Origin: a bacterium
GTDB taxonomy: Bacteria; Oederibacteriota; PGYV01; Palsa-1178
Length of the DNA stretch: 64,000 nucleotides
Assembly (NCBI GenBank): GCA_037138355.1
Contig: JBAXIL010000003.1
Location: 13,065 to 77,064 of the forward strand
Direction of reading: 5' to 3'
The notes beneath the pieces were generated by a model, which had not been told where the DNA came from, searched no databases, and saw nothing but the letters and a program-made list of their open reading frames with translations. A program made the translations under genes and the position numbers. The stretch's first letter is position 1. Each line of letters starts with the position of its first letter. Shown in pieces: positions 8,818 through 63,269 of the stretch.

Positions 8818-8937
8818 TTCTGCTTTTTATCTCCTTCTATTTTATTTGCTTTTTAAATTATAACACAATGACAAAAAAATGATAATACTTTTTTATAGTT
8901 TTTCATTTAACCTGTGTTATTTTATGTTCTTCTTTTA

Positions 8938-9876: not shown

Positions 9877-9952
9877 AAATCCTCCTTTTGTAGCCAAAGC
9901 CTAAACCCCAGTGGCATTTCTGCCACTTAGGGCATAAGTTATTAGCCAAAAA

Positions 9953-15784: not shown

Positions 15785-15829
15785 GTCTTTCTCCCCGATC
15801 GATTATATTAATAATAAAATAACAATTTT

Positions 15830-16723: not shown

Positions 16724-16754
16724 AAAAATCCTCCTGTTTTATTAACATTAGAAA

Positions 16755-17204: not shown

Positions 17205-17250
17205 TTTGTATCTCCTTTATTTAGTCATATATAATATTTAGGCAGTCCTA

Positions 17251-17283
17251 AGTATATAATACATTATTATTTTGTCAAGACAA
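17251..17283 (-). promoter_or_regulatory. Sigma70-like promoter of MarR-efflux operon 1 (minus strand: TTGACA-16nt-TATACT). An imperfect palindrome TTGTC-aa-GACAA overlaps the -35.
   Basis: Minus-strand reading gives cTTGACAaaataataatgtattaTATACTtagg. The plus strand reads ttgtcaagacaa, which is an IR with 5-bp arms. Confidence 0.4.
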
Positions 17284-17300
17284 TATTGATAGGGGAAAAT

Positions 17301-17334
17301 AAAAAAGCGCGGTTTCCCGCGCTTTTTTATTTTA
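17301..17334. terminator. Bidirectional intrinsic terminator separating efflux operon 2 (upstream on minus strand) from the MarR operon 1 promoter.
   Basis: AAAAAAGCGCGG-TTTC-CCGCGCTTTTTTATTTT: perfect 6-bp GC stem, with an A-tract and a T-tract flanking. Confidence 0.75.
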
Positions 17335-17344
17335 GCATTTTTTA

Positions 17345-20455: not shown

Positions 20456-20513
20456 ACCAATCTCCTTATTATTAGCTTGAAACCGCGATGCTTAAATATT
20501 GCCGCAACGCCGC

Positions 20514-21443: not shown

Positions 21444-21463
21444 TTTTTTGCCTCCAAATTATT

Positions 21464-22900: not shown

Positions 22901-23481
22901 TAGTATAATATTTTCCAGGCAAAGCCTGTTTTAATAATCTGTAATTCTCCATAAGACACATTTAGATTTGAATAAGTTGGTCTTTCAATCCTGAGTGACA
23001 AAACTGATGTGTCATTCACATTCCAATTAAGCCCAAATCCAAAATTATAATAATCAGCAAGCCAAGTATTATCTCTATCACCGTTATATCCAGGAATTAT
23101 TTCATACTGACTATGTCTATTAGCAAATGCCCTACCATACTCAAAACATATATCAGGGTAAACTAATAAATTTGGACATATATTAACCCTGATACCTGCA
23201 AAGACAGGATAAAAAGTATAATATTCCTGAGAATTGCTCCTATCGACAAAAAACTGAAAACCTGCTCCAGCATATAGGTCCACCCACTTCGCAATAGTGC
23301 CACCTAACTTAGCATCAAAGACCGCCGTATCATAAGAACCAGTACTATTATTTTCCAGAGTACGCGGCGTAATTAATGATGCGTAGGAAACTCCAAACTC
23401 ACTGAAAATAATTTTTTCAGCCATAAGTGGACTCAAAACTGTTAAAAACATAAACAAAACTAAAATTAATATTTTTTTCAT
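22900..23481 (-). CDS. Small outer-membrane beta-barrel-like protein (193 aa) embedded in efflux operon 2.
   Basis: Signal peptide MKKILILVLFMFLTVLSPLMA. Alternating aromatic/Gly beta-strands. Terminal aromatic (…AWKILY). Stop overlaps the start of the TolC-like gene (22900). Confidence 0.5.
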   Translation of the reverse strand: MKKILILVLFMFLTVLSPLMAEKIIFSEFGVSYASLITPRTLENNSTGSYDTAVFDAKLGGTIAKWVDLYAGAGFQFFVDRSNSQEYYTFYPVFAGIRVNICPNLLVYPDICFEYGRAFANRHSQYEIIPGYNGDRDNTWLADYYNFGFGLNWNVNDTSVLSLRIERPTYSNLNVSYGELQIIKTGFAWKILY

Positions 23482-23483
23482 TT

Positions 23484-23921
23484 TTACTCCCTTTCCATTT
23501 TCTTCTGAATTTTCTTCAGTATATTTAATGCCTGCTTTTTCTCCTGATTCGACAAAACCCCTAAAATCTCAACAAACTGTTTTTTCTTTGTTTCTATATG
23601 ACTGCAGACCATTTGCTCCACATTTTTAGTCACATGTACCCACACCGTGCGCCTATCCGACTCATTATGTTCCCTTTTTAATACACCAAAAGAAACAAGT
23701 TTATTGACTGTTTCTGTCATAGACGGTAATTTGACTCCAGCATGTTTTGCCAAATCACTCATTTTTACTTTTTTATGCTTATAAAGATAAGCCATAAGAT
23801 CAAGCTGGGACAAGGTAAGATCTTTTACGCCACTTTTCATAAAGTGCGTATTTTTTTGATTTCTCATAAAACCTGATAATGTTTCAATACATTCTGTAAT
23901 TTGTTTCATCGTTTCTTCCAT
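23484..23921 (-). CDS. MarR family transcriptional regulator (heads efflux operon 2).
   Basis: MarR wHTH with wing (REHNESDRRTVWVHVTKNVEQ). 145 aa. Confidence 0.85.
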   Translation of the reverse strand: MEETMKQITECIETLSGFMRNQKNTHFMKSGVKDLTLSQLDLMAYLYKHKKVKMSDLAKHAGVKLPSMTETVNKLVSFGVLKREHNESDRRTVWVHVTKNVEQMVCSHIETKKKQFVEILGVLSNQEKKQALNILKKIQKKMERE

Positions 23922-24466: not shown

Positions 24467-26089
24467 TTACATATTATCTTTTACTATTTTTTTCTTAACT
24501 CCACTTGATGCCAATATCACATGATAAGCAGATAAGGCTGGCATTTCTAAAGTGAATGTATTATTAATTATTTTGTCTATATCCTGTCTCCGTGTTATTT
24601 TAGCCTGACTTAACTTATCAAAGCCATAAGCCTTTCCTGTTTGATATATTTGGTCCGATTTGATTACAATTCTAACCATTGTTGTATTTATTAAATCTTT
24701 ATTTATGATTATGATATGAAGATTTGTTTCGTCGTTACCTTCTATTGAAGCATAAGTTGTTATTTTTGCTACATCAGAAGTATCTGCTTTTATATTTGTA
24801 TCACCATACTTGCCGCTATTTCCGTCATAATTTCTGTATAATCTAAAACCTGCCAAAGTATATGCTCCAAGTTCTGCCATCCAATAATTAGCCATATACA
24901 CTCCATATTTACCAAATATTCCCAATACATCTGCCTCTGCAATACCGCCCGATGGATGATAACCTGCTCCATATTCATATTCCGTAAAAGCAAGCTTGGT
25001 TCCTGGATAATATTTATCAATCATTTCATTTAGCTTTGGAATTAAGCGTATAGGACAATGTCCTGACGCGCATATCCAACTTGTTTCAATATAATTTGGA
25101 TCCCATAAAGACCTCGGGGCTTGAACTCTCGCCTCTGCTGTTTCTTCCGCCACACCTGCGGCCTGTGTGAATACTATTCTTTTTCCATTGGTTGAAGCTT
25201 CTGGATACCAGTGAACATCAAGCGCATCCAGCAAACGCATTCCTTTTGCTTTTGAGGCTTCATTTAACTTTTCTAAATAATACGCCAGATACCAACCGTA
25301 AACATAATAAGGTTTAATGTAATCAGGAGCATCCTGAAAAGTTCTGAATCCATTAAAACCATATGAGGCTGGTCCGTAGATTTCGGCGCTTGGATCTATT
25401 TTTTTCACAGCGCTTGCCGCATCAATAGAAAGCTGAACATACTCTTGTGCCCCAACTTTATTTTGGTGCAACCTTGGATGTGTGGTGGACCAAATATCAG
25501 GTTCATTATCAAGTGAATAACCCTTAACACCTGTTGACGTATCTGCTTTTCCGTATTTATTCACCAGAAAATTTACTTCTTCATCTACATAAACAAACCC
25601 ATCATTTTTATCAGGTTCTAATGATAATTCTTTTCCTTTAGTAAATATTACTTTTGCCCATCTGTCAGATGGTGCTATTTCTTTTACTCCAACAGGTCCA
25701 TTCTTATCTTTTGACACATAACCAGCAAGAGGTAGAGTTATTATAGAATACGCATTTAATGTAAGTGATTTATCGTGAAATGTAGTCAATACAGCACCAG
25801 CTTTATCTTGATCACCTGTCACATTTGCCCAATCTGCCAAATAATTATCAGAAGATTGCTGCCAATCACTACCAGCATTTGAAGCATTATTTTCCCAATT
25901 GTAACCAGTCATTCTATTACCACCTAAACGCCTCGCCGTGTAATTTGTATCCCTCGCAATATCTTGATTGACACCGTATATATAAGGAGAGATTTTTGTT
26001 CTGTCTTTTGATGTATCAATTGTTACATCAACAGCAAAAAGCAATGAAGCATTCAGAAATAATAGTAAGCCAGTCAGTATCCTTTTCAC
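24467..26089 (-). CDS. Secreted glycoside hydrolase, clan GH-A TIM-barrel. Family uncertain, possibly GH44-like.
   Basis: Signal peptide. RLGGNRMTGYNWENNASNAG block. NEP acid/base motif (YSLDNEPDIW) and a TEYE-type nucleophile motif (LAFTEYEYG), as in clan GH-A retaining glycosidases. Confidence 0.55.
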   Translation of the reverse strand: MKRILTGLLLFLNASLLFAVDVTIDTSKDRTKISPYIYGVNQDIARDTNYTARRLGGNRMTGYNWENNASNAGSDWQQSSDNYLADWANVTGDQDKAGAVLTTFHDKSLTLNAYSIITLPLAGYVSKDKNGPVGVKEIAPSDRWAKVIFTKGKELSLEPDKNDGFVYVDEEVNFLVNKYGKADTSTGVKGYSLDNEPDIWSTTHPRLHQNKVGAQEYVQLSIDAASAVKKIDPSAEIYGPASYGFNGFRTFQDAPDYIKPYYVYGWYLAYYLEKLNEASKAKGMRLLDALDVHWYPEASTNGKRIVFTQAAGVAEETAEARVQAPRSLWDPNYIETSWICASGHCPIRLIPKLNEMIDKYYPGTKLAFTEYEYGAGYHPSGGIAEADVLGIFGKYGVYMANYWMAELGAYTLAGFRLYRNYDGNSGKYGDTNIKADTSDVAKITTYASIEGNDETNLHIIIINKDLINTTMVRIVIKSDQIYQTGKAYGFDKLSQAKITRRQDIDKIINNTFTLEMPALSAYHVILASSGVKKKIVKDNM

Positions 26090-26239
26090 AATTCACCTCG
26101 TTTTATTGTATTAATCCTATAAAAGAAGAAACATCTGTGATTTGAATCAAGTAATTGTCTTTAAGTCCCTATAACTATAACGCAAATAAAGCCAAAATGT
26201 TGCTTTTGGGGAGTATGTTTTAGATTTAAGGTATTATGA

Positions 26240-27883
26240 TCAGACTTTATATTTATAAAATGTCTTTATTGCTTCATATAATGTTAGATTGGCGTATGGT
26301 TCAAAAGGCGCACGCAAGGCTTTCATCATTAAAGGACTATGCAATATATAACGATAATTTGCGGAGAATTTTACTCCTGTATGTCCGTCCAATTCATCAG
26401 TGGTATAAGGAAGGTTTAATACCCAAACCGTGCTTCCTTTTATCTTATATCCAGTAATTAATGAGTAAGCATTATTAACAAGCGCTATTCTCTTTCCATT
26501 TTGTATTTCCCTACTAATAAATATATTGTCATCAAGCATTTCTTCCGCACCGCGAAAAGTTATGGTCTCTACCTGTATGTGGTCTTCTAATTCTTCTATT
26601 TCAAAATATTTTTTTAAACATTTAGCGGCTTCCACAGTTAAAACAATATTTTTTCTATTTTTGATAAGGAAGGCAAAAAGTGCTGGAAAATCTTCTTTGC
26701 GTGCTGACTGAGCTGTTAGAATTACTATCTTTTCCTTTACATTTCTTTTATCCGTAAGATAAGCAGGGATTCCTGCCATTAAAAAATATTGTGCAAGCAG
26801 TTCATCTCCATAAGTATTTGCTTCTCTTATCATAGGTATAGTAAATATCTTTCCAAAAGATGACAAGCGTCCCATCTTATCAGTTTTTTCTATAAGTTCT
26901 TCTACTAAAGGTCTCATTATAGGTTGAGGCATAATACCTGCACAGAACAATATAATTTCTTCTGCTCCACCCAAGACAGACTGAAAAGCTTGTTCTGTGT
27001 ATATTTCTTTATTGCACTGGTATATGTCAAACCATGCCTTTTTAACCTTACCTGGAGCAATTTGTTTTATATATTTAAAGAACATTGAACCATAAGCAGG
27101 CAAAAACCTTGCTTGTTTAAAATCACGGGTTTCCGTTCCAACGCCTATCTCATCATATATATCAATAAGCTTTGTGAGATCATAACCACGATCATAAAAA
27201 CGCTCATACCACTGAGGAAGCTTAAGTATAATATTCACATTTGGATTTACTTTTTTTGCTGGTTCAATAATAAATTTCTTTGAAACATCAAAAAGTAATT
27301 TAGACCTATACTCCTGCCATGTCTTTTTTCCTTTACCTTTTTTACATTCAGTACATTCACAAGAAGTAAAAAACCAATCATCTATTATTATCTCATCAAA
27401 TAGACCTGCTGTTATTTCAAAAACTTTCTTCATTTTTTTATTTGCTTCTTTATCAGAAAAACAACCTGAAGCTGTTGGAGTTTCATTTTTCACTTTGTCA
27501 GAAAAATGCGTAGGTGTAACAGCCCCAGAAACTTCGTATCCCTCTTCTATTAATTCGGCTTTCATAGCTTCTATTACAGGTATGTCTACCGTGTAACCAT
27601 CTCTATATGTTTCAAGATATACTTTCTTAATAGATAAAGGAGAAAAAATACCCATAAATTTTTTAATAATAGGTCCATAATCGCGTACATCAAAAGCAGT
27701 AAAGAAAAGTGCATAATAAAAATTCTTAGGGGATATGGTTTTTCCTTTAAAAGGCGTAAAATCATTTATAAGGGGGTCTTTTGGAACTGAAATAGGCCAC
27801 TTAGCAAGCGGCCTTAAGTTCTTAGCGGGGTAATTCAAACTTTCTACAAATTCAATCTGTTTTTGTTTAATCTTTTCGGTCAT
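26240..27883 (-). CDS. Uncharacterised cytoplasmic protein (547 aa) with a CxCxxC motif. Possibly a glycoside-hydrolase-like enzyme functionally linked to the adjacent secreted GH.
   Basis: No signal peptide. TSCECTEC cysteine triad (GH42 beta-galactosidases carry a CxCxxC zinc site, but the rest does not clearly match). Sits between the GH gene and the divergent MarR-emrAB promoter region. Confidence 0.4.
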   Translation of the reverse strand: MTEKIKQKQIEFVESLNYPAKNLRPLAKWPISVPKDPLINDFTPFKGKTISPKNFYYALFFTAFDVRDYGPIIKKFMGIFSPLSIKKVYLETYRDGYTVDIPVIEAMKAELIEEGYEVSGAVTPTHFSDKVKNETPTASGCFSDKEANKKMKKVFEITAGLFDEIIIDDWFFTSCECTECKKGKGKKTWQEYRSKLLFDVSKKFIIEPAKKVNPNVNIILKLPQWYERFYDRGYDLTKLIDIYDEIGVGTETRDFKQARFLPAYGSMFFKYIKQIAPGKVKKAWFDIYQCNKEIYTEQAFQSVLGGAEEIILFCAGIMPQPIMRPLVEELIEKTDKMGRLSSFGKIFTIPMIREANTYGDELLAQYFLMAGIPAYLTDKRNVKEKIVILTAQSARKEDFPALFAFLIKNRKNIVLTVEAAKCLKKYFEIEELEDHIQVETITFRGAEEMLDDNIFISREIQNGKRIALVNNAYSLITGYKIKGSTVWVLNLPYTTDELDGHTGVKFSANYRYILHSPLMMKALRAPFEPYANLTLYEAIKTFYKYKV

Positions 27884-42557: not shown

Positions 42558-42650
42558 GATTTCCTTTTTCTTGTATGAGTATTTTAAGTAGATTAAATAT
42601 TTTTTTGAAAATATAACTTGAATGATTATATAAGTGTTTTGGCTTTTGTC

Positions 42651-42683
42651 AATAAAAGAAAAAGAGCGGCAATGTCCGCTCTC
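42651..42683 (-). terminator. Intrinsic terminator downstream of the small HTH protein gene (minus strand).
   Basis: Minus strand reads GAGCGG-ACATTG-CCGCTC followed by TTTTTCTTTTATT. Confidence 0.65.
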
Positions 42684-42704
42684 CTTACAAAATTGAATAT
42701 AATA

Positions 42705-42902
42705 TTATTGTTTAATTGATTTTAGTTTTAGCACGCCAGAGTGAACTAATGACATAATAGTAACTGTAGATACGCCTGTTTTTAAAGAGACATCCATAAC
42801 CGAAGCCATAGGATTCTTATTTAAATATTCTTTTACCTTTTTAATATCAGGTAAATTATTTTCCTGTATGAATTTCCTAACTTTATCCCTGTCATTATTC
42901 AT
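42705..42902 (-). CDS. Small hypothetical protein (65 aa) with a possible helix-turn-helix (SVMDVSLKTGVSTVTIMSLVHSG).
   Basis: Last gene before a terminator at the end of the long minus-strand operon. No family recognised. Confidence 0.4.
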   Translation of the reverse strand: MNNDRDKVRKFIQENNLPDIKKVKEYLNKNPMASVMDVSLKTGVSTVTIMSLVHSGVLKLKSIKQ

Positions 42903-42949: not shown

Positions 42950-43510
42950 TTAAAATATTTTCAAATGCTCAATTAATATCTTAACACCTATTCCTATCAA
43001 AATCAACCCTCCAAGAATTTCAGCACGCCTACCAAACATTTGACCTACTTTTTTACCAATTGCCCCACCTAAAAGCGTAAATGCAAATGAAACCGATCCA
43101 ATTAAAACAACTGGTATTAACATATCATATTTCATTACAGAAAAACTTACACCCACTGCCAGTGCATCTATGCTCGTTGCAAAAGACAACCATATGAGTG
43201 CTTTTCCAGTAGTATAATCACTTTTTCCCTCACTGTTTTTTTCTAAACCCTCTTTTAACATTTTAGTTCCTATTAGTACAAGCAAACCAAAGGCAATCCA
43301 ATGATCAAAGTTTTTTATCAGTGCTATAAAACTATTTCCAGCCAACCACCCAAATAAAGTCATGAGTGACTGGAAAATACCAAATAATAAACCCATAGAT
43401 AAAAGATTATTTAACTTAAAACCCTTTCCCGTTGTGCCTGCTGATATTGCTACCGCAAAACAATCCATAGCAAGTCCAATTGAAATAAGAATCATTGTAA
43501 GTAAGTCCAT
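42950..43510 (-). CDS. mntP: Manganese efflux pump MntP (DUF204/LysE-like).
   Basis: MDLLTMILISIGLAMDCFAVAISAG... with the duplicated DxxAV(G) motif (SIDALAVGVSF). 6 TM. 186 aa. Confidence 0.85.
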   Translation of the reverse strand: MDLLTMILISIGLAMDCFAVAISAGTTGKGFKLNNLLSMGLLFGIFQSLMTLFGWLAGNSFIALIKNFDHWIAFGLLVLIGTKMLKEGLEKNSEGKSDYTTGKALIWLSFATSIDALAVGVSFSVMKYDMLIPVVLIGSVSFAFTLLGGAIGKKVGQMFGRRAEILGGLILIGIGVKILIEHLKIF

Positions 43511-43525
43511 TAATACCTCTCTTCA

Positions 43526-44479
43526 TTAATTGGCGAGTTTCACCGTCTTCGAAAGTTCGCCTAAATCATTTGTATTAAGCGAGCGTTTTCCGCTATCACG
43601 CTTTCTTGACATGCGTGATAAAAATGTCCCTGGCCCTATTTCTACAAATGTATTAACTGCATTTTTTAACATAGTTTCCAAACTTAAATCTATTCGTGAA
43701 GGTTTGAAAATATAATCAGTAAACTTCTCTTTGATTTCCTGTACATTATCATAATAATTTCCTGTTGTTTGGCAAATTATACGCTGCTTTGGTTTGTCCA
43801 TAGGTATTTTTTTAAAAACTTCCTTTAATCTATCTGCTATTGGCTTTAATATAGAAAAACAAGCCGACTCTTCATGTGGTATATTAATAACTGATCCGTT
43901 TAATTTTTTAAATAATTCAGTTAATTTATCCTTATCCTTAGTCTCACAAACTATAATGGTAGAATCTTTTCCATTGTATGATACTATTTCTGCCTTAACT
44001 GTGTTTTTCAACTCTGAGATAACCTTTTCAACCTGCATTACCTGCACAGTATTTATGAGCAAATGTTGAAAAAAACCTTTACCCACTTCATCACTAATCA
44101 TTTGTTTTTTAACAAAAAGAAAATCAATGGCATTATCAAAAGATATTGCTTCGGAACACACAAGAGCCATTAGCTCTCCAGCTTTATACCCAAACATTTG
44201 TTCAGGCATAACTTTGTAATCTTTTAAAATATCAAAAATACCTCTCTGATAAACAGCATTTATTATGATTCCATTTTCTTCAAGCATAAGCTCTTCCACA
44301 GGTCCTAAAAATGAGAGTTTATTTATCTTAAAATCACTATATTTTTTTTCTACTTTATCGTAGTACTGCCTCATAATCCAAGATGAATCATATGCTTTTT
44401 TGCCGAGGCTCACATACTGATATCCAGCGCCAGTAAACATATAACCTATAGCTGCCAAAATATACCTCCTAAAATGCAC
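43526..44479 (-). CDS. FabD-fold (malonyl-CoA:ACP transacylase-like) protein with a substituted active site: the GHSxG nucleophile elbow reads GYKAG.
   Basis: Colinear with FabD. FTGAGYQ vs FPGQGSQ. MFGYKAGELMALVCSEAISFDNAI vs MAGHSLGEYSALVCAGVIDFADAV. EIGPGTFLSRM vs EVGPGKVLTGL. Ser92-equivalent is Lys, Arg117-equivalent is Lys. Confidence 0.65.
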   Translation of the reverse strand: MHFRRYILAAIGYMFTGAGYQYVSLGKKAYDSSWIMRQYYDKVEKKYSDFKINKLSFLGPVEELMLEENGIIINAVYQRGIFDILKDYKVMPEQMFGYKAGELMALVCSEAISFDNAIDFLFVKKQMISDEVGKGFFQHLLINTVQVMQVEKVISELKNTVKAEIVSYNGKDSTIIVCETKDKDKLTELFKKLNGSVINIPHEESACFSILKPIADRLKEVFKKIPMDKPKQRIICQTTGNYYDNVQEIKEKFTDYIFKPSRIDLSLETMLKNAVNTFVEIGPGTFLSRMSRKRDSGKRSLNTNDLGELSKTVKLAN

Positions 44480-44482
44480 CTT

Positions 44483-45160
44483 CTATTTTTTAGTTATGAC
44501 TACCATTCCAAAATCACCTAAAGGAAGATTTATCTTTTCTAATACATCATCCGCAAATGGAAATAAATAACCAACCGTAATAGGCATATAAAGCGTATAT
44601 TTTACAGTATATTTATAACTGATATCCTTAACTCCCAAAGCTTCCTTTATTATGGTTGTTATTTCAGTCCCTGATAAAGGTGCCGAATCATTATAAACAG
44701 CCCTACGCTCTCTCACTTTAAATATTTTTGAAAGAGAGTTTTTATTCAGAAAACCTATTGCCACTTTTTTTGCTGCTACCCGAAAAGCTTCTTTTAAAGC
44801 GGCTTTTTTATCAAACGCAAATCCAAAAGTGTTCATAAATATAACATTATCAAAAGAACCGTTTCCAAGAGGCAATTTTTCATACGGACACCTAATAAGC
44901 TGTTCATTTTTTATAGTGGATTTCTGTCGAGCTTTTTTTATAAGTTCTTCAACTGGTTCTACTCCTACTGCTTCAAGACCTAAATCACACAAATATTCAA
45001 GGTTTCTTCCTGTGCCGCAGCCTATTTCTAATACACGCTCACTTCTTTTAAAACGAATACTATTAATAAGCAATTCTTTTTCTTTGTCATCTGTGTACAT
45101 CCCTGCAGGTGACAAAAACCATCTCTCATAATTTGAAACTATATCGCGTTCTACAACCAT
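44483..45160 (-). CDS. Class I SAM-dependent methyltransferase (Methyltransf_11/UbiE-like).
   Basis: VLEIGCGTGRNLEYL motif I. GSFDNVIFMNTF post-II. 225 aa. Confidence 0.8.
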   Translation of the reverse strand: MVVERDIVSNYERWFLSPAGMYTDDKEKELLINSIRFKRSERVLEIGCGTGRNLEYLCDLGLEAVGVEPVEELIKKARQKSTIKNEQLIRCPYEKLPLGNGSFDNVIFMNTFGFAFDKKAALKEAFRVAAKKVAIGFLNKNSLSKIFKVRERRAVYNDSAPLSGTEITTIIKEALGVKDISYKYTVKYTLYMPITVGYLFPFADDVLEKINLPLGDFGMVVITKK

Positions 45161-45174
45161 GTATTGTCTCCTGT

Positions 45175-46140
45175 CTATTTTGTTTCCTTAGCCCAGTTAA
45201 TAACATCTCTCAGTCCGTCTTTAAATTGTATCATTGGTTTCCATTTCAACAATTTGGCAGTTTTTGATATATCCGCTTGCATGTGCCTCTGATCGCCAGG
45301 CCGTGCAGTTTTATAAATTACTTTATTTGTTTTTCTGGTTTTTCCAAAACTTTTCAAAGTAATGTCTATTAATTGATTAACCGATACCCTTATACCAGAA
45401 CCTAAATTAAATACTTCATTAAAAGATTTTTTATTATCTATGGCACCAATCCAAGCTTTTGCAACATCACTAATGTGCACATAGTCACGAGATTGTAAAC
45501 CATCACCAAATACTGTAACTGCTTCACCACGCAGTACATTACCTATAAATATTGAAACAACTCCCTGATAAGGATTAGTCAGCGACTGTCTGCGCCCATA
45601 TACATTAAACATTCTAAAAGCAGTAGTATTTAATTTAAACCCCATATCTGTTCTTAAACCTGTGGCTAATACATATCTCTCGCCTGCATATTTTGTAATA
45701 CCATAATATGCAATCGGCCTGGTGCCCATTGTTTCTTTTACTGGTATAGCATCAGGTACTCCATACGAGGTCATGGAAGAAGCATATAATAACCTATTCA
45801 CTTTATACTTTATCGCATAATTAATAATATTTATAGTTCCCAAGACATTTGTATTGAGATCCGCTGCTGGGTCATCAAATGATTTAATTGTTGAAGCACA
45901 ACCAGCTATGTGAAAAATAGCATCTATTTTATTTTTAAATACTTTGTCCAAATCTTTTGGATTCCTAACATCTCCTTTGATAAAGAGAGCTTTGGAATTA
46001 ATATTTTCCTTAAGACCAGTGGAAAGATTATCAACTACAATAACCTTATAACCACTATCTAATAAAGCATCTGTCATATTTGAACCAATAAAACCCGCCC
46101 CACCTGTAACCAATACTGTTTTTTCCATGTTTGCCTCCAT
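45175..46140 (-). CDS. NAD-dependent nucleotide-sugar epimerase (GalE-like SDR; UDP-hexose or UDP-pentose 4-epimerase).
   Basis: VLVTGGAGFIGSN Rossmann. YxxxK (YGITKYAGE). 321 aa. Confidence 0.85.
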   Translation of the reverse strand: MEANMEKTVLVTGGAGFIGSNMTDALLDSGYKVIVVDNLSTGLKENINSKALFIKGDVRNPKDLDKVFKNKIDAIFHIAGCASTIKSFDDPAADLNTNVLGTINIINYAIKYKVNRLLYASSMTSYGVPDAIPVKETMGTRPIAYYGITKYAGERYVLATGLRTDMGFKLNTTAFRMFNVYGRRQSLTNPYQGVVSIFIGNVLRGEAVTVFGDGLQSRDYVHISDVAKAWIGAIDNKKSFNEVFNLGSGIRVSVNQLIDITLKSFGKTRKTNKVIYKTARPGDQRHMQADISKTAKLLKWKPMIQFKDGLRDVINWAKETK

Positions 46141-46160: not shown

Positions 46161-46859
46161 TCATAACTTAAGTTTTAACTTCCATACTATCCACGCGGCT
46201 TCTAAAATCACTTTTCTTGACATTTTGGAAGACCCTGAGTGGCGGTCAACAAATATTATTGGTATCTCTTTAATTTTGAATGATCTTTCCCATGCTTTAT
46301 AGTGCATTTCTATCTGAAAAGCATAACCATCAGAATGTATTTTATCGAGATCAATTGCTTTTAAAACACTACTTTTATAACACTTAAAACCACTTGTTAA
46401 ATCAGTAAGCGGAAGACCTGTTATTATTTTAGCATATAAGTTCGCAAGTTTTGAAAGCACAAGTCGCCTAAGCGGCCAGTTAACTACTGATAGTCCGTTG
46501 ATATACCTTGAACCTATTACCAAATCATTGGTTTTAAGTGTTTCTATAAAAACAGGTAGATAATTTGGATCATGAGAAAAATCAGCATCCATTTCAAATA
46601 TAATGTCATATTTTTTGGCTAAAGCATACTTAAATCCTTCAACATAAGCAGTTCCCAAACCGAGTTTTTTTGCTCTTTCTATGAGCTTTACTCTTTTATT
46701 TTTTTCCATTATTACTTTTACTGCTGCTCCAGTACCATCAGGAGATTTGTCATCCACAATAAGTATGTCAGCAGCAGGCAGAGTTTTCATTATCATTGGA
46801 ATAAGTTTTTTTATATTATCTTTTTCATTAAAAGTAGGTATTACTATAAGTATTCTCAT
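46161..46859 (-). CDS. GT2-family polyprenol-phosphate glycosyltransferase (Dpm1/ArnC/CsbB-like).
   Basis: ILIVIPTFNEKDNI. DDKSPDGTG. DxD (FEMDADFSHDP). 232 aa soluble GT-A domain, typical of Und-P-sugar synthases. Confidence 0.82.
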   Translation of the reverse strand: MRILIVIPTFNEKDNIKKLIPMIMKTLPAADILIVDDKSPDGTGAAVKVIMEKNKRVKLIERAKKLGLGTAYVEGFKYALAKKYDIIFEMDADFSHDPNYLPVFIETLKTNDLVIGSRYINGLSVVNWPLRRLVLSKLANLYAKIITGLPLTDLTSGFKCYKSSVLKAIDLDKIHSDGYAFQIEMHYKAWERSFKIKEIPIIFVDRHSGSSKMSRKVILEAAWIVWKLKLKL

Positions 46860-49150
46860 TTATCACCTTTATGTATTTTCCTTTCTCTAAAATATATTAT
46901 CACATAAAATAATATACCAATTAAGGTCAAAAGTAAACCTAAGTAAAACCCATCCTTTGAATAATAAAGTTCTATGTCATGCGTTCCGGTTTTTAAAGGT
47001 ATCCCCATAAAAGCATAATTTACATTATAAATTTTATTTAATTTATTATCAACTTTAGCTTTCCACTCAGGATAGTAAGAATTCTTTACCACCAACATTC
47101 CATCTTTTTCTGTTTCAACAATCATCTTAATCCTATTAGGAGTATATGATTGAATGCCTATCTTATATGATAAAAGATCTGGTGACGGCATCAAATCAAT
47201 GTCATCTTTTATCAAAACTCCCTTAAAATCATAAGTCCCACTTTTCATGTAATTTAATATCTCTTCATTTGTATTATACTTAAATATTTTATCAGTAAAA
47301 ACGATTCTTGGAGAAACAGCTTTGTTACTATAAACTTTAACCTTTCCATCTAACAACTTATATAAACCTGGTATATTTATGTCCTCAGACATTAAGAAAT
47401 ACTTAATATTAAAATAACTATCTGCAGCCAAAATATTGAAAAGTCCTGCTTTCTCAAGTGCTAAATATGATTTAGGTATTAAACCATGTATCCCTTTTAA
47501 CCCTTCTATATCATAGTATATATTTCTATTAGGCGACCAAGAGAACGAGAAATCTGTCATCCTATAGATATCTTTATCCTGCTTTATTGCTATGGCTACT
47601 GGATCAATAACGGGTACATAATTTTTGTATTCCTCATAAATAATAAATTTATTATCAATTCTATGCATATCCACAAAGTTAATAGATGCCAATATTATTG
47701 ATACGAGAAAAATATTCTTTATTTTTTTTGAAATAAAAGCATAAATAATAGCAAGACCAGCTGCTGACACAAAAATAAAATATACTACATCCTGTCTTAT
47801 GCCAGCTAATATATTTCCTAATATTTGCGGTGATATCTGTGTTTTCTTAATAGTCATATATAAGCTACTGACTATCTGTGTTAAGTTATTGCCAATAAAC
47901 ATTATAGATAAGGTAATAAATATAATTCCCATAATGACTGAAATACCAGTCAGAATCTTTAACATAGTATTTTTACTTGCCTGTCCAAAATTAAATATAT
48001 TATTAAGTCCTACTGCTGACAGTGCCATAATAAAAAAAGTAAATACATATAGGAACCGTGATGGATTTCTAAATTGATTAAAAACTGGAATATAATAAAA
48101 TAGCTTGTATATTGGAGTAAAACCACCAAACGAAAGAATAAGAAATAATATAGAGGAAAAAGTCAAAAACTTAGCAAAAGAAGAGAGTTTTTTATCTACA
48201 AAAGCAAAAGGAACAAGCAAAAATGAAATGATTCCAAAATAATAGGTGGTTAGATTAAACGGCATAAACCCATAATAGTTTTCTGCCCTTAAACCGAAAA
48301 ATCGCGGAAGAAAAAATGTCAGTGTTTCAATTGGGTGAAATGACCATGAAACAAAATCACTATAAGTAAAACTCCCTCTCCAAGAATAATCAGTATAAGG
48401 AATAGAAGGTATAAGCTGGAGGGACGCATATATAATAATAGCCAAGGTGCTCAACATAAACAATCCAATTGGTTTTATATAATTAATTTTATTTCTGGCT
48501 TCTATCCAAATTTTGTAAATAGCAAGCATAAGAACTCCCAGATATGTATAGGCCATGATCTGCATACCAGTTGCAAGTATTTGCAAAGCCATAAGCACTG
48601 CTGCATTTAAAAATGGAAGCATTTTTTTATTATCAAAACCCCTTGCTGTAAAATAAAATATAAATGGTATAAGTGCTCCTGCCTTAATATTATTCCAGTG
48701 ACCAACATAAATATACGAAAGCATGAATCCACTTATGGTGAAAGCAACAGCAGAGAAAAAAGCCGCCTCTCTTCTGATACTAAACTGTCTCAAAAATAAA
48801 AACATACCAAGAAATGAAACCAACAGATGAATTAATAGATCAATAGTGTAGGTAAACTGCAGGGGAATAGGTAAAAACATAAACAATAAATCAGTCGGGT
48901 AATAATATAAAAGACTTGAAGAGCCTATCAGTGGCATTCCAAAAAACAAATGTGGCATCCAAAGTGGCAAATCGTGATATTTTACAGCCATTTCCTGAGC
49001 AAATAATTTGAATGGTAAATAAATAGTAAAAAAATCAGTTCCAAATAATATTTTTCCTGGCTGAAGTGCCCCATTAAAAAAAATTAATCCTGTTATAAAA
49101 AGAAATAAACCAATTAACCAGTTTTGTATCTTCTTATTGTCCATCAGCAA
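46856..49150 (-). CDS. YfhO-family GT-C membrane glycosyltransferase (polytopic N-domain plus C-terminal extracytoplasmic domain and final TM).
   Basis: 764 aa, more than 12 TM. C-terminal signature ...NSYYPEWKAKVDNK...VNYAFMGIPLKTGTHDIELYY...LLLTLIGILFYVIIYF matches the YfhO family ending. ATGA overlap with the downstream GT2 and a 17-nt overlap with the upstream UXS-like gene. Confidence 0.72.
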   Translation of the reverse strand: MLMDNKKIQNWLIGLFLFITGLIFFNGALQPGKILFGTDFFTIYLPFKLFAQEMAVKYHDLPLWMPHLFFGMPLIGSSSLLYYYPTDLLFMFLPIPLQFTYTIDLLIHLLVSFLGMFLFLRQFSIRREAAFFSAVAFTISGFMLSYIYVGHWNNIKAGALIPFIFYFTARGFDNKKMLPFLNAAVLMALQILATGMQIMAYTYLGVLMLAIYKIWIEARNKINYIKPIGLFMLSTLAIIIYASLQLIPSIPYTDYSWRGSFTYSDFVSWSFHPIETLTFFLPRFFGLRAENYYGFMPFNLTTYYFGIISFLLVPFAFVDKKLSSFAKFLTFSSILFLILSFGGFTPIYKLFYYIPVFNQFRNPSRFLYVFTFFIMALSAVGLNNIFNFGQASKNTMLKILTGISVIMGIIFITLSIMFIGNNLTQIVSSLYMTIKKTQISPQILGNILAGIRQDVVYFIFVSAAGLAIIYAFISKKIKNIFLVSIILASINFVDMHRIDNKFIIYEEYKNYVPVIDPVAIAIKQDKDIYRMTDFSFSWSPNRNIYYDIEGLKGIHGLIPKSYLALEKAGLFNILAADSYFNIKYFLMSEDINIPGLYKLLDGKVKVYSNKAVSPRIVFTDKIFKYNTNEEILNYMKSGTYDFKGVLIKDDIDLMPSPDLLSYKIGIQSYTPNRIKMIVETEKDGMLVVKNSYYPEWKAKVDNKLNKIYNVNYAFMGIPLKTGTHDIELYYSKDGFYLGLLLTLIGILFYVIIYFRERKIHKGDK

Positions 49151-50075
49151 ACCATTTAATGGTATGGCTTAACCCTTCACGAAGTTTTATTCTTGGTTCC
49201 CAACCAAGCAGTTTTTTTGCCTTTGTTATATCAGGTTTTCTGCGAGTGGGATCATCAGTAGGTAATTTTTTATACACTATTTTTGACTTTGAACCCGTCA
49301 TTTCCTTTATTATTACGGCTGCTTCCTTCACCGTAAACTCATCTGGGTTGCCTATGTTAATAACTTCTCCTGCTAATCCATCTTTAAGCATTGCCGTAAT
49401 TAAACCTTTAACTTGATCAGAAACATAACAAAAACTTCTTGTCTGAGAACCATCCCCATATATAGTCAAATCCAGATTATGCTGGGCCTGCCAAATAAAG
49501 TTTGATATAACTCTTCCATCATCTTTTTGTAACCGTGGTCCATAAGTGTTAAATATCCTAATTATTCTGGCATCTACCTTATGTTTTCTAACAAATTCCA
49601 TAGTTAGAGCCTCAGCAAATCTTTTGGCTTCATCATAACAAGACCTTATACCCACTGGATTTACATTTCCCCAGTAAGTTTCTTTTTGCGGGTGTTCTTT
49701 TGGATCTCCATATGTTTCAGAAGTAGAAGTAATTAAATAACGCGCCTTTTTTGCTCTACAAAATTCAAGTATATTATATGTACCTAAAGAATTTGTAAGC
49801 AAGGTTTCTATAGACTTTGCCTGATAGTACGGTGGTGAAGCATATGAAGCCAAATGAAATACATAATCCACGGCACCTTTTATTTTTATTGTTTTTTGAA
49901 CATCATGTTTAATAAATTTAAAATTTCTATTTTTAATAATTGTTTTTAGATTTGACATTCTACCAGTTCCTAAATTATCAAGGCATATTACCCTGTATCC
50001 TTTTTCAATAAGGTTTTCACATAAATGTGAACCTATAAACCCTGCTCCACCAGCCACAACAACAGTTTTATTCAT
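49134..50075 (-). CDS. UDP-glucuronate decarboxylase (UDP-xylose synthase, UXS/ArnA-C-terminal-like SDR).
   Basis: VVVAGGAGFIGSHLCENLIEKGYRVICLDNLGTGR. YDEAKR catalytic motif. 313 aa. Closely resembles eukaryotic/bacterial UXS. Confidence 0.8.
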   Translation of the reverse strand: MNKTVVVAGGAGFIGSHLCENLIEKGYRVICLDNLGTGRMSNLKTIIKNRNFKFIKHDVQKTIKIKGAVDYVFHLASYASPPYYQAKSIETLLTNSLGTYNILEFCRAKKARYLITSTSETYGDPKEHPQKETYWGNVNPVGIRSCYDEAKRFAEALTMEFVRKHKVDARIIRIFNTYGPRLQKDDGRVISNFIWQAQHNLDLTIYGDGSQTRSFCYVSDQVKGLITAMLKDGLAGEVINIGNPDEFTVKEAAVIIKEMTGSKSKIVYKKLPTDDPTRRKPDITKAKKLLGWEPRIKLREGLSHTIKWFADGQ

Positions 50076-59714: not shown

Positions 59715-61037
59715 TTATGCTTTATAATATTTTTTGTAATACATTAACGGATTAGGTTTTGTTTCGCACTCAGTTCCTATTAATATCTTAGATATCCTTT
59801 TTTCTCGTCTGGCTTCATGTAATCTTGTAATAATTTTATCCCTCAATTCATAAGGGTTCATAGGATTTATATAAACTTTTGTGCCCCCTTCAAAACCAGC
59901 CGGTGTATTTACCCTGAGCTTTATAAGAATATGTAAAGGCATTACATCTATGGAATCTTTTGGAGTATAGTACCACTCTTCATTAGTTGCTATCTGATTT
60001 GTGATTGCATGATGAACTGCATGAACTATATCCGAGAAGCCGCGTAATTCTTTGTCTGACATTTCGTATGGATAAACAGCTTCACTTTTTGAAAAAATTC
60101 CTATAGTTGGGAACCTGTGTCCTATGTCAGAAAATGCAATTGCATAATCATTTTCCGCCACCACCAGATTAAAATATGTCGCCATATTTGCTCCCATCTC
60201 ATTATATATGTTCGGGTTTTTTCTGATTAGATTTATTTCTCTTTCTATAGAAACGCCCCACTCATCTATAGCCACAAGTTGCTTATGAAGATGATCAAAA
60301 GATGCCCCTGCAGGTTTTAACCAATTTTGAAATATAGAAACATATCTGGCATATTTATTGTATGTATAAATATCCACAAGACCCTTAATAGTGAATTTTA
60401 GATATTGATAGTGTTCTTTTGGTGACATTTCACCTGAACTACACAGTTGAGTTTCAAATTCGGCATCTTTAATATAATGACTCCTGCCTACAATGAGTTC
60501 GTGTCCTCCAGCAAAAAAAGCATCCGACATATCAATCTTTTCTTTTTCTGAGACTTGCGTTGGATCCCTTCCCAAAAGTTGTAATTTCATATTGATTATA
60601 TGCATTACATGTTCATATCCAGCTTTGTCTGCAAGATAATCGTCTTTTCTTTTCTTTACATCTTCTGGATACTGATATCCAAAATTCTTTTTCCAATATT
60701 CCATAGTAACTATTTCAAAAAGGTTTGGAACGCGTCTAAATTCCGCCGTGGTCTGTCTAAGTATTCCTGGTTTTAAACCTTTGATTGCTACATACTTTCC
60801 ACCTATTTTTACAAGTCGTTCTTTTTCAGGTGGTGTATTTTCATATTTTTCCTCACAAAAATTACAATAATCTTCTTTTTTCTTTTTCTCTATTTTTTTT
60901 GCAGTAGTCGGTATAGAGTTTGTAATCGGTTTGCTCGCCCTTCCAGGAACTGTCCAAACTTCTGTTCCTGTAAATGGGTTAATTTGTTTTATAGTACCAT
61001 CTTGCATTCTGATAAAAAACTGATTGTAATTTGACAT
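59715..61037 (-). CDS. GalT-like HIT-superfamily nucleotidyltransferase (galactose-1-phosphate uridylyltransferase family).
   Basis: N-terminal INPFTGTEVWTVPGRASKP... with CxxC (CNFCEE). HxHxQ active-site motif (FDHLHKQLV). 440 aa. Confidence 0.65.
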   Translation of the reverse strand: MSNYNQFFIRMQDGTIKQINPFTGTEVWTVPGRASKPITNSIPTTAKKIEKKKKEDYCNFCEEKYENTPPEKERLVKIGGKYVAIKGLKPGILRQTTAEFRRVPNLFEIVTMEYWKKNFGYQYPEDVKKRKDDYLADKAGYEHVMHIINMKLQLLGRDPTQVSEKEKIDMSDAFFAGGHELIVGRSHYIKDAEFETQLCSSGEMSPKEHYQYLKFTIKGLVDIYTYNKYARYVSIFQNWLKPAGASFDHLHKQLVAIDEWGVSIEREINLIRKNPNIYNEMGANMATYFNLVVAENDYAIAFSDIGHRFPTIGIFSKSEAVYPYEMSDKELRGFSDIVHAVHHAITNQIATNEEWYYTPKDSIDVMPLHILIKLRVNTPAGFEGGTKVYINPMNPYELRDKIITRLHEARREKRISKILIGTECETKPNPLMYYKKYYKA

Positions 61038-61301
61038 AAATCCACCTCTTTCCTTATTATATTTCCTGCTGGATTAGTGAATAGTTTAAATTATATATGA
61101 TTTTAGGTTTTAAGTAAATAGATGAAATTGCTTTATAAATAGGCTATTATCTTGTTTTTTTATTAATAAACCTACCCTATAATCAGTAAATAGATCACAA
61201 CAGAAAGTTATTACATTAATGTTATATAAACATTTATGTATTGCTATTTTTCAGGCATTATTCTAAAATTAATTAGAAACATAAAATTAATGGGGTGTTA
61301 T

Positions 61302-63269
61302 TTGAAAAAACTAACAATAGCATCATTTCTAATAATAAGTTTTTACATGTATATCTTTGGTGCCGCCGACTTTGTCGGGACTACAAGTGCTAATTTTATC
61401 AAAATACCTCCATTTGCCCGTGCAGCAGCTATGGGCGAAGCTTTTACTGCAGTATCTGACGGTACCTACGGGCTTTATTATAATCCTGCCGGAATATCCT
61501 CGGTTTTAGGTTATGAAGTGCAGTTCTCACACATTAACTGGTTTCAAAATATACAGTATGAACATTTAGCGCTGGTTTGTCCTGTGCCTTTTACCGATAC
61601 TGGAAAACTCGGTTTTGCCATTTCCTTATTTCGCGTGGGAGATATGACTCGCACCACAGCATTAGCTTCTTATGATCCTTCTTACTTATCAACTATTGAC
61701 TGGTCCCAATTTTCAAATCGTTTTTCACCTTATGACTTGGGAATTACTATAGGTTATGCCATGGACATTAAAGATTATTTATCTGCTGGAATAACAATCA
61801 AATACATATCACAAAATATTGATACAAATTCTGGTTCAAACATTACTGCCGATATAGGTCTAATGTACAAACAATATTCAAATGGAAATTATCTGAGACT
61901 TGCCGTAGACATGTCAAACTTAGGAACAGAACTAAAAATGCATTTATTATCTTTTGAACCACCACAAATTTTTAAAGTAGGACTATCTGACGAATTTAAA
62001 ATTTGGACAGGCACTCTTTTGATATCATCTCAAGGGCTCATACAACCTGATTATGATCCATTATATTCTATTGGTTTTGAATATTGGTTTAACGAAATAT
62101 TTGCCATTCGTTTTGGTTATGAAACTGGAGCCTTTGACCGTCCTACTTTTGGCTTAGGCTTGCGTTACTGGGGCGCAGAAATAGATTATGCCTTCATTAA
62201 CTACGATGAACTTGGCCCGACACACAGATTTTCAGTTTTATATGCTTGGGGCACACCTTCTGCCAAACTTAAAGTTTACCCAACTATTTTTTCTCCTAAC
62301 AATGATAAATTTTTGGATACCACTGTCTTTACACCAGTGCTTAAATTGCAAGAAAAATTACGCTCAGTGAAGCTTAATATTTATGGAACGGATGGTTTTA
62401 CTTTACTTGCTAAATTTCCACTAAAAGATAAATTACAAAAATCAATTCTCTGGGGAGGAATGGTTACAGGAAAAACACTTCCTGATGGAGTTTATCAAGC
62501 AAGTATCACTGCCGAATATGATAACGGCACTACTGATTCAAACAAGGTTCCAATAGAAATAGACAATACTCCTCCTGAAATACGCGTGGATGCTGACCCA
62601 AAACTACTTAAACCAAATCAAAAAGACGCCCTCATAGTACCTGCCACCTTTACCTTCTTTTCACAGGACAGAAATAAAGTAGTCAAATGGCAATTTGTTA
62701 TTTGGGATTATAATAAAAAATTATTTAACACTATACACGGAGACGGAGAACCCCCTCTGTCATATATATGGGATGGAAAAGGACTAAATAATCAATACAT
62801 TCAAACAGGTGAAGTTTACTACTATAGTTTCATAACTTTTGACTCTGTAGGTAATAAAGCCCAAACCAAAGTAGAAGCCATAGTAGTTTTGCTTAAAGAA
62901 ATAAAACTTACCTTTTCTTCAGATGCCCTTTTTGATCTCGGTAAAGCAGATGTTAAAATTTCCGCCTACTCGGTTTTAAAGACCATAAAAAATGTTATCG
63001 ATAAAAATCCTGAATCAGATATTGTAGTCGCTGGATATACCGATAATAGTCCTCTGCTTGGCCTAAAATATCGTGACAATACTGAACTTTCTAAAGCCCG
63101 TGCGGATGCTGTAAAGTTTTTTATGGTAAACCTACTCGGATATGAAGAAAAAAGGATAAAAACTCAAGGGTATGGGGAGCTCAATCCTATAGCGGATAAC
63201 GGAACAGTTGAAGGTCGTTTAAAAAATAGACGAGTTGAGATAATTATTCAAAGCACCATTTATAAATAA
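61302..63269 (+). CDS. Outer-membrane fusion protein: PorV/UPF0164-like FadL-type beta-barrel, two FlgD-Ig-like (T9SS-CTD-related) domains, and a C-terminal OmpA peptidoglycan-binding domain. Start most likely the TTG at 61302 (MKKLTIASFLIISFYMYIFGA/ADF); the alternative ATG is at 61290.
   Basis: Barrel signature FIKIPPFARAAAMGEAFTAVSDGTYGLYYNPAGI. Ig-like segments starting IFSPNNDKFLDT... and a second copy (ATFTFFSQDRNKVV...). OmpA domain (AGYTDNSPL...LSKARADAV...NRRVEI). Confidence 0.68.
   Translation: MKKLTIASFLIISFYMYIFGAADFVGTTSANFIKIPPFARAAAMGEAFTAVSDGTYGLYYNPAGISSVLGYEVQFSHINWFQNIQYEHLALVCPVPFTDTGKLGFAISLFRVGDMTRTTALASYDPSYLSTIDWSQFSNRFSPYDLGITIGYAMDIKDYLSAGITIKYISQNIDTNSGSNITADIGLMYKQYSNGNYLRLAVDMSNLGTELKMHLLSFEPPQIFKVGLSDEFKIWTGTLLISSQGLIQPDYDPLYSIGFEYWFNEIFAIRFGYETGAFDRPTFGLGLRYWGAEIDYAFINYDELGPTHRFSVLYAWGTPSAKLKVYPTIFSPNNDKFLDTTVFTPVLKLQEKLRSVKLNIYGTDGFTLLAKFPLKDKLQKSILWGGMVTGKTLPDGVYQASITAEYDNGTTDSNKVPIEIDNTPPEIRVDADPKLLKPNQKDALIVPATFTFFSQDRNKVVKWQFVIWDYNKKLFNTIHGDGEPPLSYIWDGKGLNNQYIQTGEVYYYSFITFDSVGNKAQTKVEAIVVLLKEIKLTFSSDALFDLGKADVKISAYSVLKTIKNVIDKNPESDIVVAGYTDNSPLLGLKYRDNTELSKARADAVKFFMVNLLGYEEKRIKTQGYGELNPIADNGTVEGRLKNRRVEIIIQSTIYK

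Follow-up and report, generated by a model that had tools for sequence, protein, structure and literature searches.

On the minus strand of a 64,000-nt stretch of contig JBAXIL010000003.1 (GenBank assembly GCA_037138355.1; the whole stretch is called the window below), a run of genes reads, in transcription order, hisS, pdxA, rsmA, glmS, rlmI, a first short-chain dehydrogenase/reductase gene (SDR1), a GT-C and a GT2 glycosyltransferase gene, a second short-chain dehydrogenase/reductase gene (SDR2), a methyltransferase gene, a FabD-like gene, the gene for MntP, a small open reading frame (ORF) designated orf65, pcrA, an HD phosphohydrolase gene and nadE. The subject of this analysis is the FabD-like gene, whose product resembles FabD, the malonyl-coenzyme A (CoA):acyl carrier protein (ACP) transacylase. 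The longest ORF at the locus (43526..44479, minus strand) opens with GTG and counts 317 codons. Homologues all begin seven residues inside this frame, at M-A-[AV]-I-G-Y (MAAIGY...), and a perfect AGGAGG lies 6 nt upstream of that point, which makes TTG at 44458 the most likely start codon; residues are numbered from this TTG, in agreement with Escherichia coli FabD numbering around the nucleophile elbow. The longest ORF opens directly 3′ of the methyltransferase TAG stop; both genes are read in one frame in the window, with only this stop and eight sense codons between them (44459-44485, minus strand). Read-through or fusion of the two was considered and judged unlikely, because both spacing (–10 to +311 nt) and phase differ among genomes.

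The protein is colinear with malonyl-CoA:ACP transacylase over its whole length, as proposed in a first-pass annotation made by eye: the NCBIfam model TIGR00128 (fabD) matches at E=1.2e-26 across model positions 3-284 of 290. The score of 93.8 bits reaches roughly one third of the curated cut-off (260.9 bits), and Pfam PF00698 (Acyl_transf_1), with 28.1 bits against a gathering cut-off of 32.7, likewise falls short. Among solved structures, the best HMMER match is FabD of Clostridium perfringens (3ptw, E=6e-26, residues 9-314). An AlphaFold2 model built from the family alignment (predicted local distance difference test 88.2, predicted template-modelling score 0.88) has the two-subdomain FabD fold, an alpha/beta-hydrolase-like core with a ferredoxin-like lid, and places Lys92 in a short strand-to-helix turn, as is the FabD nucleophile. 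A Foldseek search of the Protein Data Bank (PDB) matched only FabDs and acyltransferase (AT) domains of polyketide synthases (E=1e-23), with query-normalised TM-scores of 0.84-0.89 to 5ypv, 3ptw, 1mla and the FabD-AcpP complex 6u0j. The sole poorly modelled stretch is a loop with a strongly conserved family motif, F-K-I-N-K-L-S-F-x-G-P. By full-length similarity in sequence and structure, the protein belongs to the Acyl_transf_1/FabD-lysophospholipase-like superfamily.

In FabD and AT catalysis, the acyl group is carried as an acyl-O-serine intermediate; His201 activates the serine, Gln11 and the backbone of residue 93 hold the oxyanion, and Arg117 binds the malonyl carboxylate. An alignment of 53 family members with 65 canonical single-domain FabDs, for which the E. 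coli FabD reference was verified as identical to 1MLA, revealed that this apparatus is gone. The motif II nucleophile at position 92, Ser in 65/65 canonical proteins, is Lys in 52 of the 53 family members and Arg in the other; Gln11 (65/65) is Ala in 47/53; Arg117 (65/65) is Lys in 52/53 and Arg in 1/53; and the motif III histidine at position 201 (65/65) is replaced by Cys (39 members; Cys200 in the window protein), Asn (7) or Gly (6). His195, close to the lost His201 position, is not conserved in the family. Further replacements affect position 13 (Ser to Tyr in 50/53), position 63 (Gln in 65/65; Ile, Leu or Val in the family), position 93 (Leu in 57/65; Ser in 51 members, Ala in the window protein and Asn in member P0287), position 160 (Asn in 65/65; Ser in 46), position 166 (Gln in 64/65; Ser in 52) and position 250 (Gln in 61/65; Tyr in 50). 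At positions 197/198 of E. coli FabD, canonical Ser and Gly give way to Glu-Glu in all 53 members (Glu196 and Glu197 in the window protein). Asn162 is the sole invariant cleft residue to have been kept. The loop with AT motif III (xAxH) carries specificity and the histidine (PMC12895367), and the invariant Glu196-Glu197 pair lies at its start here.

The residues by which FabD docks AcpP and CoA have been established experimentally as Lys189, Arg190, Lys279, Lys286 and Arg287, with Arg190 binding the CoA 3′-phosphate (bioRxiv 10.1101/2020.05.15.098798). In the family, Lys189 is deleted, Arg190 has become Ala, Asn or Ser, and Lys279 Thr or Ser, leaving Lys286/Arg287 as the only docking positions that are still basic. 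The three substitutions listed in the first-pass annotation, GYKAG for GHSLG at the elbow, FTGAGYQ for FPGQGSQ and VKKQM at the Arg117 helix, were reproduced both in the 53-versus-65 alignment and by HMMER, where all four printed alignments to solved FabDs set GYKAGE over G-(H/L)-S-L-G-E. That list was right in what it named and understated the losses, for His201, Gln63, Asn160, Gln166, Gln250 and Lys189/Arg190/Lys279 are missing as well.

The divergent members have the elbows GFRSGE, GFRNGE and GYKSGQ. Arg stands in for Lys in P0050, P0287 and P0289, which represent separate sub-lineages, while Glu196 and Glu197 never change. This pattern of exchange suggests that the elbow needs a cation and not specifically a lysine amine, and favours an electrostatic, non-covalent role, either in anion binding or in pairing with Glu196/Glu197. 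A Schiff base or covalent nucleophile at Lys92 is disfavoured by the Arg in these three members. Ser93 and Cys200 were rejected as stand-in nucleophiles since neither is conserved (Asn or Gly also occur at 200), and a nucleophile at 93 would, in addition, have no small residues at –2 and +2, where they are needed. Ala93 in the window protein and Asn93 in P0287 also rule out a shifted alignment that would bring a Ser or Cys into the elbow. The family is basic (isoelectric point 8.3 vs. 5.7 for FabD), but proteins encoded nearby in this AT-rich genome are just as basic, so that charge was discarded as a hint of binding to nucleic acid or membranes.

A word-indexed search retrieved 55 clusters at ≥49% identity, nearly all of 310 aa, with an ordinary FabD as the next match (E=5e-4). 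A profile made from the family only added eight members, for a total of ~63 clusters, all from Goldbacteria/FCPU426, in which most of the replacements are nearly invariant. Full-length members score at least 437 bits with this profile and the next matches 155 bits, the latter comprising 58 sequences that all read GLSLGE; no intermediates between the family and ordinary FabD were found in this search. When 1.84 billion cluster representatives were searched with HMMER, only P0002 and the fragment P0146 belonged to the family among the 150 best matches listed, and the other single-domain matches among those 150 had Ser wherever the elbow was found. Across GTDB species genomes, the family occurs in 20 metagenome-assembled genomes (MAGs) labelled FCPU426, Goldbacteria or Goldiibacteriota, or bearing evidently loose labels such as 'Spirochaetia'. 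The MAG records behind the related loci L011, L012, L013, L014, L016, L019-L022 and L024 read Spirochaetia, Oligoflexia or Candidatus Methylomirabilis; on cassette-bearing MAGs, these labels probably reflect loose or wrong taxonomy, or mis-binned contigs. Members including P0004, P0006, P0037, P0038 and P0049 are named [acyl-carrier-protein] S-malonyltransferase by JGI and NCBI, very probably a propagated mis-annotation.

Fifteen orthologues have intact ORFs of exactly 930 nt without indels, with a proportion of synonymous differences (pS) of 0.61-1.0 (saturated) and of nonsynonymous differences (pN) of 0.08-0.29. Over 38 members, 47 columns are invariant down to ~49% identity, and each gene has its own Shine-Dalgarno site. 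Fourteen positions show a type-II switch, where one residue is ≥80% conserved in FabD and another ≥90% in the family. Within the family, conservation is higher at the 28 former cleft positions than over the whole protein (0.85 vs. 0.77, permutation p=0.009), and the same holds when the comparison is limited to replaced positions (0.81 vs. 0.73, p=0.03). These figures indicate strong purifying selection on the gene, and neofunctionalisation or domestication in place of decay.

In a Clostridium locus, canonical fabD is embedded among fatty-acid genes, fabH-acpP-fabK-fabD-fabG-fabF-accB-fabZ-accCDA. Searches with the proteins of this operon found no fab neighbour in the window or in 27 Goldbacteria loci (~0.49 Mb), and no fab or ACP Pfam family was matched in the 64-kb window. 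A tblastn search with canonical FabD and the Clostridium fab operon recovered only the FabD-like gene itself, the Goldbacteria DNA searched being the flanks of this gene; the papers on Goldbacteria that were consulted make no mention of lipids. Acylation, or acyl-carrier recognition, of the glycan, which the first-pass annotation had raised as a possibility, appears unlikely given the loss of Arg190, Lys189, Lys279, Asn160 and Gln166 and the lack of an ACP or fab gene in this DNA.

Features at and around the gene are given in Table 1. Its tightest link is the methyltransferase gene, which adjoins it in 21/21 genomes; –10 to +92 nt lie between the two in 20 of these, and ≤0 nt in six. The methyltransferase family shows an equal clade restriction and sharp drop-off (~64 clusters vs. 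~63 for the FabD-like family). The structures closest to the methyltransferase are the uncharacterised TM1293 and TT1324; tRNA, natural-product and sugar O-methyltransferases come next.

Table 1. Features at and around the FabD-like gene, with positions in the window.
Feature	Position	Strand	Basis and remarks
FabD-fold protein without acyl-transfer residues, 310 aa, TTG start, TAA stop	43526..44458	-	ORF, Shine-Dalgarno sequence, homologue N-termini, FabD homology, fold, purifying selection
Shine-Dalgarno AGGAGG (perfect), 6 nt 5′ of the TTG start	44465..44470	-	read from sequence
Former oxyanion loop F8-T-G-A11-G-Y13-Q14 (FabD: FPGQGSQ)	44417..44437	-	53-vs-65 alignment
Former nucleophile elbow G90-Y-K92-A-G-E95	44174..44191 (Lys92 codon AAA, 44183-44185)	-	alignment to GHSLGE, model
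Lys117 codon, site of the malonyl-carboxylate-binding Arg117	44108..44110	-	53-vs-65 alignment
Loop P194-H-E196-E197-S-A-C200 in place of FabD S-x-P-F-His201 (motif III)	43859..43879	-	alignment
Class-I S-adenosylmethionine (SAM) methyltransferase, 225 aa	44483..45160	-	Pfam Methyltransf_11/25; modelled; invariable upstream partner
SDR2, NAD-dependent sugar-nucleotide epimerase (GalE/TviC-like)	45175..46140	-	family searches and synteny
Short soluble GT2, putatively of the polyprenyl-phosphate sugar synthase type	46161..46859	-	Pfam Glycos_transf_2, 97.8 bits; no transmembrane-like segment; syntenic
YfhO-like/PTPS-related GT-C membrane glycosyltransferase, 764 aa, ~13 transmembrane-like segments	46856..49150	-	Pfam YfhO, 65.5 bits (cut-off 28.5); PTPS_related, 35.4 bits; syntenic
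SDR1, sugar-nucleotide 4,6-dehydratase/decarboxylase type, first cassette gene	49134..50075	-	family searches and synteny
MntP manganese exporter, downstream neighbour here	42950..43510	-	Pfam Mntp, 165 bits; downstream only in L008, L009, L014
Terminator-like hairpin 3′ of orf65, probable transcription-unit end	42659..42686	-	consensus scan only
Sigma-70 promoter-like site (12/12) before pcrA	42625-42652	-	consensus scan only

Together with the methyltransferase and FabD-like genes, which make up its 3′ end, SDR1, GT-C, GT2 and SDR2 form a sugar-modification (glycosylation) cassette. In 27 related loci, the order SDR1, GT-C, GT2, SDR2, (a LigT-like gene), methyltransferase, FabD-like gene is unbroken wherever the contig reaches, down to 48-50% identity, and it is kept even where both flanks are different (L003, L004 and L006). 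A consensus scan of the minus strand from SDR1 to orf65 found no terminator-like site comparable to the hairpin beyond orf65. Because of this and of the gene order kept in all 20 related genomes, co-transcription of the FabD-like gene with the cassette is supported, in line with the sugar-modification operon that the first-pass annotation had proposed. Its further placement of the gene between the methyltransferase and MntP stands for the former, which is constant, and lapses for the latter, found only here and in three close relatives; elsewhere, the downstream gene codes for a Fic protein, a diacylglycerol kinase, an ABC substrate-binding protein or a hypothetical protein. As the downstream gene differs among genomes, MntP is not a conserved partner.

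The best named matches of the GT2 protein are AglJ, PpgS, PgfS and ArnC, all far below cut-off. No GtrA/GtcA-type flippase gene was found in the cassette, whose genes abut and leave no room for a small membrane ORF; the flippase may be encoded elsewhere. Cassette content varies at a few points. A gene for a LigT-like 2H phosphoesterase (Pfam LigT_PEase, E=1e-20) lies between SDR2 and the methyltransferase in L001 (8594-9127) and L006 (8758-9297), and gaps of ~550 nt separate these two genes in many other loci; in the window, the LigT-like gene is missing (SDR2 stop at 45175, methyltransferase start at 45160). It may be part of a sub-module of LigT-like, methyltransferase and FabD-like genes. 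In L001/L010 (2243-6836 on a 1.24-Mb contig), the cassette carries two YfhO-like GT-C genes in tandem, and another follows pcrA; only L001 has an AMP-binding gene (acyl-CoA-ligase-type) bordering the cassette, immediately 5′ of SDR1. Between the cassette and pcrA, orf65 (42705-42902, minus strand, 65 aa) is conserved and syntenic, also in L008, L009, L010-L012, L015, L017 and L023. It gave weak hints only, namely to the YvyF-like model TIGR03826 (E=1.6e-4) and, in the L001 orthologue, to a MerR-type helix-turn-helix; the transcription unit may thus end with the gene for a small DNA-binding regulator.

The FabD-like protein is a neofunctionalised or pseudo-enzymatic FabD paralogue that lacks every functional hallmark of FabD tested here, be it nucleophile, histidine, arginine, oxyanion glutamine, docking residues, profile scores above cut-off or fab context. 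As its residues would allow no acyl-O-Ser intermediate, it is very probably not a malonyl-CoA:ACP transacylase, and its job in Goldbacteria is almost certainly different from that of FabD. A non-catalytic module or a re-engineered enzyme, the two options put forward in the first-pass annotation, still frame the question correctly. We tentatively place ahead of the others, without much confidence, the reading that the protein is a non-catalytic ligand- or partner-binding subunit, i.e. an adaptor or activator, of the co-expressed methyltransferase, which would probably serve the methylation of a cassette sugar. The protein is cytoplasmic and has kept the two-subdomain FabD fold, with its whole acyl-transfer apparatus exchanged. 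The old cleft, predicted to be lined by two cations (Lys/Arg92 and Lys117), by Glu196 and Glu197, and by the tyrosines Tyr13, Tyr91 and Tyr249, would bind a polar or charged pathway ligand or the methyltransferase itself, and the protein would present the substrate to, or activate, a methyltransferase acting on the cassette's sugar or lipid-linked sugar. Class-I methyltransferases that need a non-catalytic activator have a precedent in Trm112, and a Trm112 structure (PDB 6f5z) turned up when the partner methyltransferase was compared with known folds. The likeness lies in the dependence of a small class-I SAM methyltransferase on a partner that is not itself catalytic; the differences are that Trm112 is a small zinc-knuckle protein without a FabD fold, and that the complex is only proposed here. 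A more far-reaching version of the adaptor reading, which we consider doubtful, holds that the FabD fold was recruited outside acyl transfer, in what would be the first known instance; the protein would be indispensable to a dedicated SAM methyltransferase as its substrate-presenting or catalytic subunit, and the polyprenyl-phosphate- or nucleotide-linked sugar would then be delivered to the Goldbacteria envelope by the YfhO-type GT-C.

Several observations weigh against a methyltransferase subunit serving glycosylation. The genes glmS, rlmI, orf65 and pcrA are often syntenic too, within a single clade; since these housekeeping flanks are shared across it, adjacency may be partly historical, and the link to the glycosylation genes is weaker evidence than that to the methyltransferase. 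The sequence and fold neighbours of the methyltransferase in the PDB are mostly uncharacterised structural-genomics proteins and point to no one substrate class, and its nearest outgroup relatives, in Pseudodesulfovibrio and Thermovibrio, lie in unrelated neighbourhoods that gave no context lead. The complex with the methyltransferase is putative, and the cleft may be open or plugged by Lys-Glu salt bridges. Finally, a conserved polar cleft of Lys, Glu, Tyr and Ser would be just as expected of a new active site.

This last point leads to the strongest competitor, a re-tooled enzyme in which the cleft was rebuilt as a non-covalent acid/base site (Lys/Arg92, Lys117, Glu196, Glu197 and the tyrosines) acting on a polar substrate, for example a sugar nucleotide, the 4-keto sugar made by SDR1 or a polyprenyl-phosphate sugar. 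The near-invariance of the replaced cleft residues, their conservation above the rest of the protein and co-transcription with sugar-nucleotide-modifying enzymes would all fit, and two adjacent invariant glutamates, two lysines and three tyrosines make a typical catalytic inventory. Nevertheless, the exchange of Lys92 for Arg in three members excludes an obligatory Schiff-base or Lys-nucleophile mechanism, the cassette misses no specific reaction that would demand such an enzyme, and we know of no enzyme of the FabD fold that works without a Ser or Cys nucleophile, so that a re-tooled enzyme seems on the whole unlikely, if well worth bearing in mind. Somewhat improbable, in our estimate, is a conserved function apart from the glycosylation cassette, with the protein as a stand-alone or methyltransferase-paired module (joined by LigT in many genomes) whose position would simply reflect clade-wide gene order. 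That glmS, rlmI, orf65 and pcrA are syntenic as well and that the region is one long co-directional housekeeping run speak for such an arrangement, as does the LigT-like gene that, in many genomes, interrupts the cassette after SDR2 and sets the methyltransferase and FabD-like genes apart as a second block. Against this stand the gene order, which is continuous from SDR1 onwards to the FabD-like gene in all loci, including those where both flanks differ, and the lack of any terminator-like site inside the cassette in the window.

The remaining explanations can be largely set aside. The names given by JGI and NCBI and, weakly, the failure to find a canonical FabD in the Goldbacteria DNA searched (the gene's flanks only) would agree with a protein that is still the malonyl-CoA:ACP transacylase and uses an unconventional nucleophile. 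This is very hard to reconcile with the replacement of all of Ser92, His201, Gln11 and Arg117, with the lack of conservation of Ser93 and Cys200, with the loss of the CoA 3′-phosphate and ACP contacts, with a score of 94 bits against a 261-bit cut-off and with the absent fab operon context. Even PfaB, a divergent AT, keeps the Ser-His dyad, and a Ser-to-Ala exchange abolishes its transfer activity (PMC12895367). A decaying fabD paralogue without function, which the lost catalytic residues alone might suggest, is next to untenable, being refuted by the selection data: the 15 orthologues are intact and equal in length with low pN at saturated synonymous sites, and the 47 invariant columns and the individual Shine-Dalgarno sites point the same way.

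Set beside known systems, the protein shares with FabD/malonyl-CoA:ACP transacylase (TIGR00128; PDB 1MLA, 3PTW, 6U0J) its length, whole-chain colinearity and two-subdomain fold, and retains G12, Q14, G90, G94-E95, N162, the VNTFVE-G-G strand and the basic pair 286/287; it differs in the replaced Ser92, His201, Gln11, Arg117, Gln63, Asn160, Gln166 and Gln250, in the lost Lys189/Arg190/Lys279 and in having no fab operon around it. Re-use of such scaffolds as binding or adaptor modules is familiar from CGI-58/ABHD5, neuroligins and GID1, alpha/beta-hydrolase-type proteins without the elbow nucleophile, and from the truncated AT-docking remnants of trans-AT polyketide synthases. To our knowledge, no FabD paralogue that is full-length, stands alone and has a conserved elbow cation is among these; they belong to other folds or families or are truncated. 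PfaB of polyunsaturated fatty acid synthases is similar in being a divergent AT with an elbow His-to-Tyr change (GYS.G; here GYK.G) and a small or hydrophobic residue for the oxyanion Gln, but it has the Ser-His dyad, transfers acyl groups and is fused to a pseudo-ketosynthase, whereas the Goldbacteria protein lacks both residues and stands alone (PMC12895367). A literature search for a Ser-less FabD or a FabD pseudoenzyme found no precedent, in agreement with the first-pass annotation; the literature on inactive or atypical ATs concerns domains inside megasynthases. With the GT2 (CsbB/GtrB/PgfS/PpgS/ArnC) plus GT-C (YfhO/PgfM/ArnT) systems (PMC8035078, PMC7389260), the cassette has in common the tailoring dehydrogenase/reductases, a GT2 whose possible task would be the loading of polyprenyl phosphate, and a YfhO-like GT-C; it differs in that its matches to named equivalogs fall far below cut-off and that it holds no GtrA/GtcA-type flippase gene. 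In the abstracts retrieved on such systems, no methyltransferase and FabD-fold pair is reported.

Elsewhere in the window, two consecutive sets of MarR, HlyD-type adaptor and AcrB-type resistance-nodulation-division (RND) pump genes, the second with an OEP/TolC gene, occupy 12683-23921 (minus strand); with OmpA at 61236-63269, they indicate a diderm envelope. Within 24467-27883 (minus strand), a GH44 glycoside hydrolase (222 bits), adjoined by a 547-aa ORF without Pfam match (26240-27883), fits the cellulolytic lifestyle reported for Goldbacteria. A full-length DUF4921 protein (59715-61037, minus strand, 601 bits) is encoded next to a peptidyl-prolyl isomerase and a 780-aa protein with a periplasmic-binding domain. 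A plus-strand ORF of 324 aa (8879-9853) overlaps almost wholly with a PALP-family gene on the minus strand (8938-9897) and is most likely a shadow ORF.

Any metabolic reconstruction of Goldbacteria in which the FabD-like gene stands for FabD would be wrong. FabD and AT domains rank with the best-studied catalysts of acyl transfer. Confined to this one uncultivated candidate phylum, the family offers a clean natural case of fold re-use that would surprise a specialist in AT or fatty-acid synthases, a full-length, stand-alone protein whose four catalytic residues and most of whose CoA/ACP contacts have been exchanged for a new conserved set of Lys/Arg, Lys, Glu-Glu and Tyr. Should its association with the methyltransferase and the GT2/GT-C pair be functional, the protein would take part in an undescribed accessory step in lipid-carrier-dependent glycosylation.

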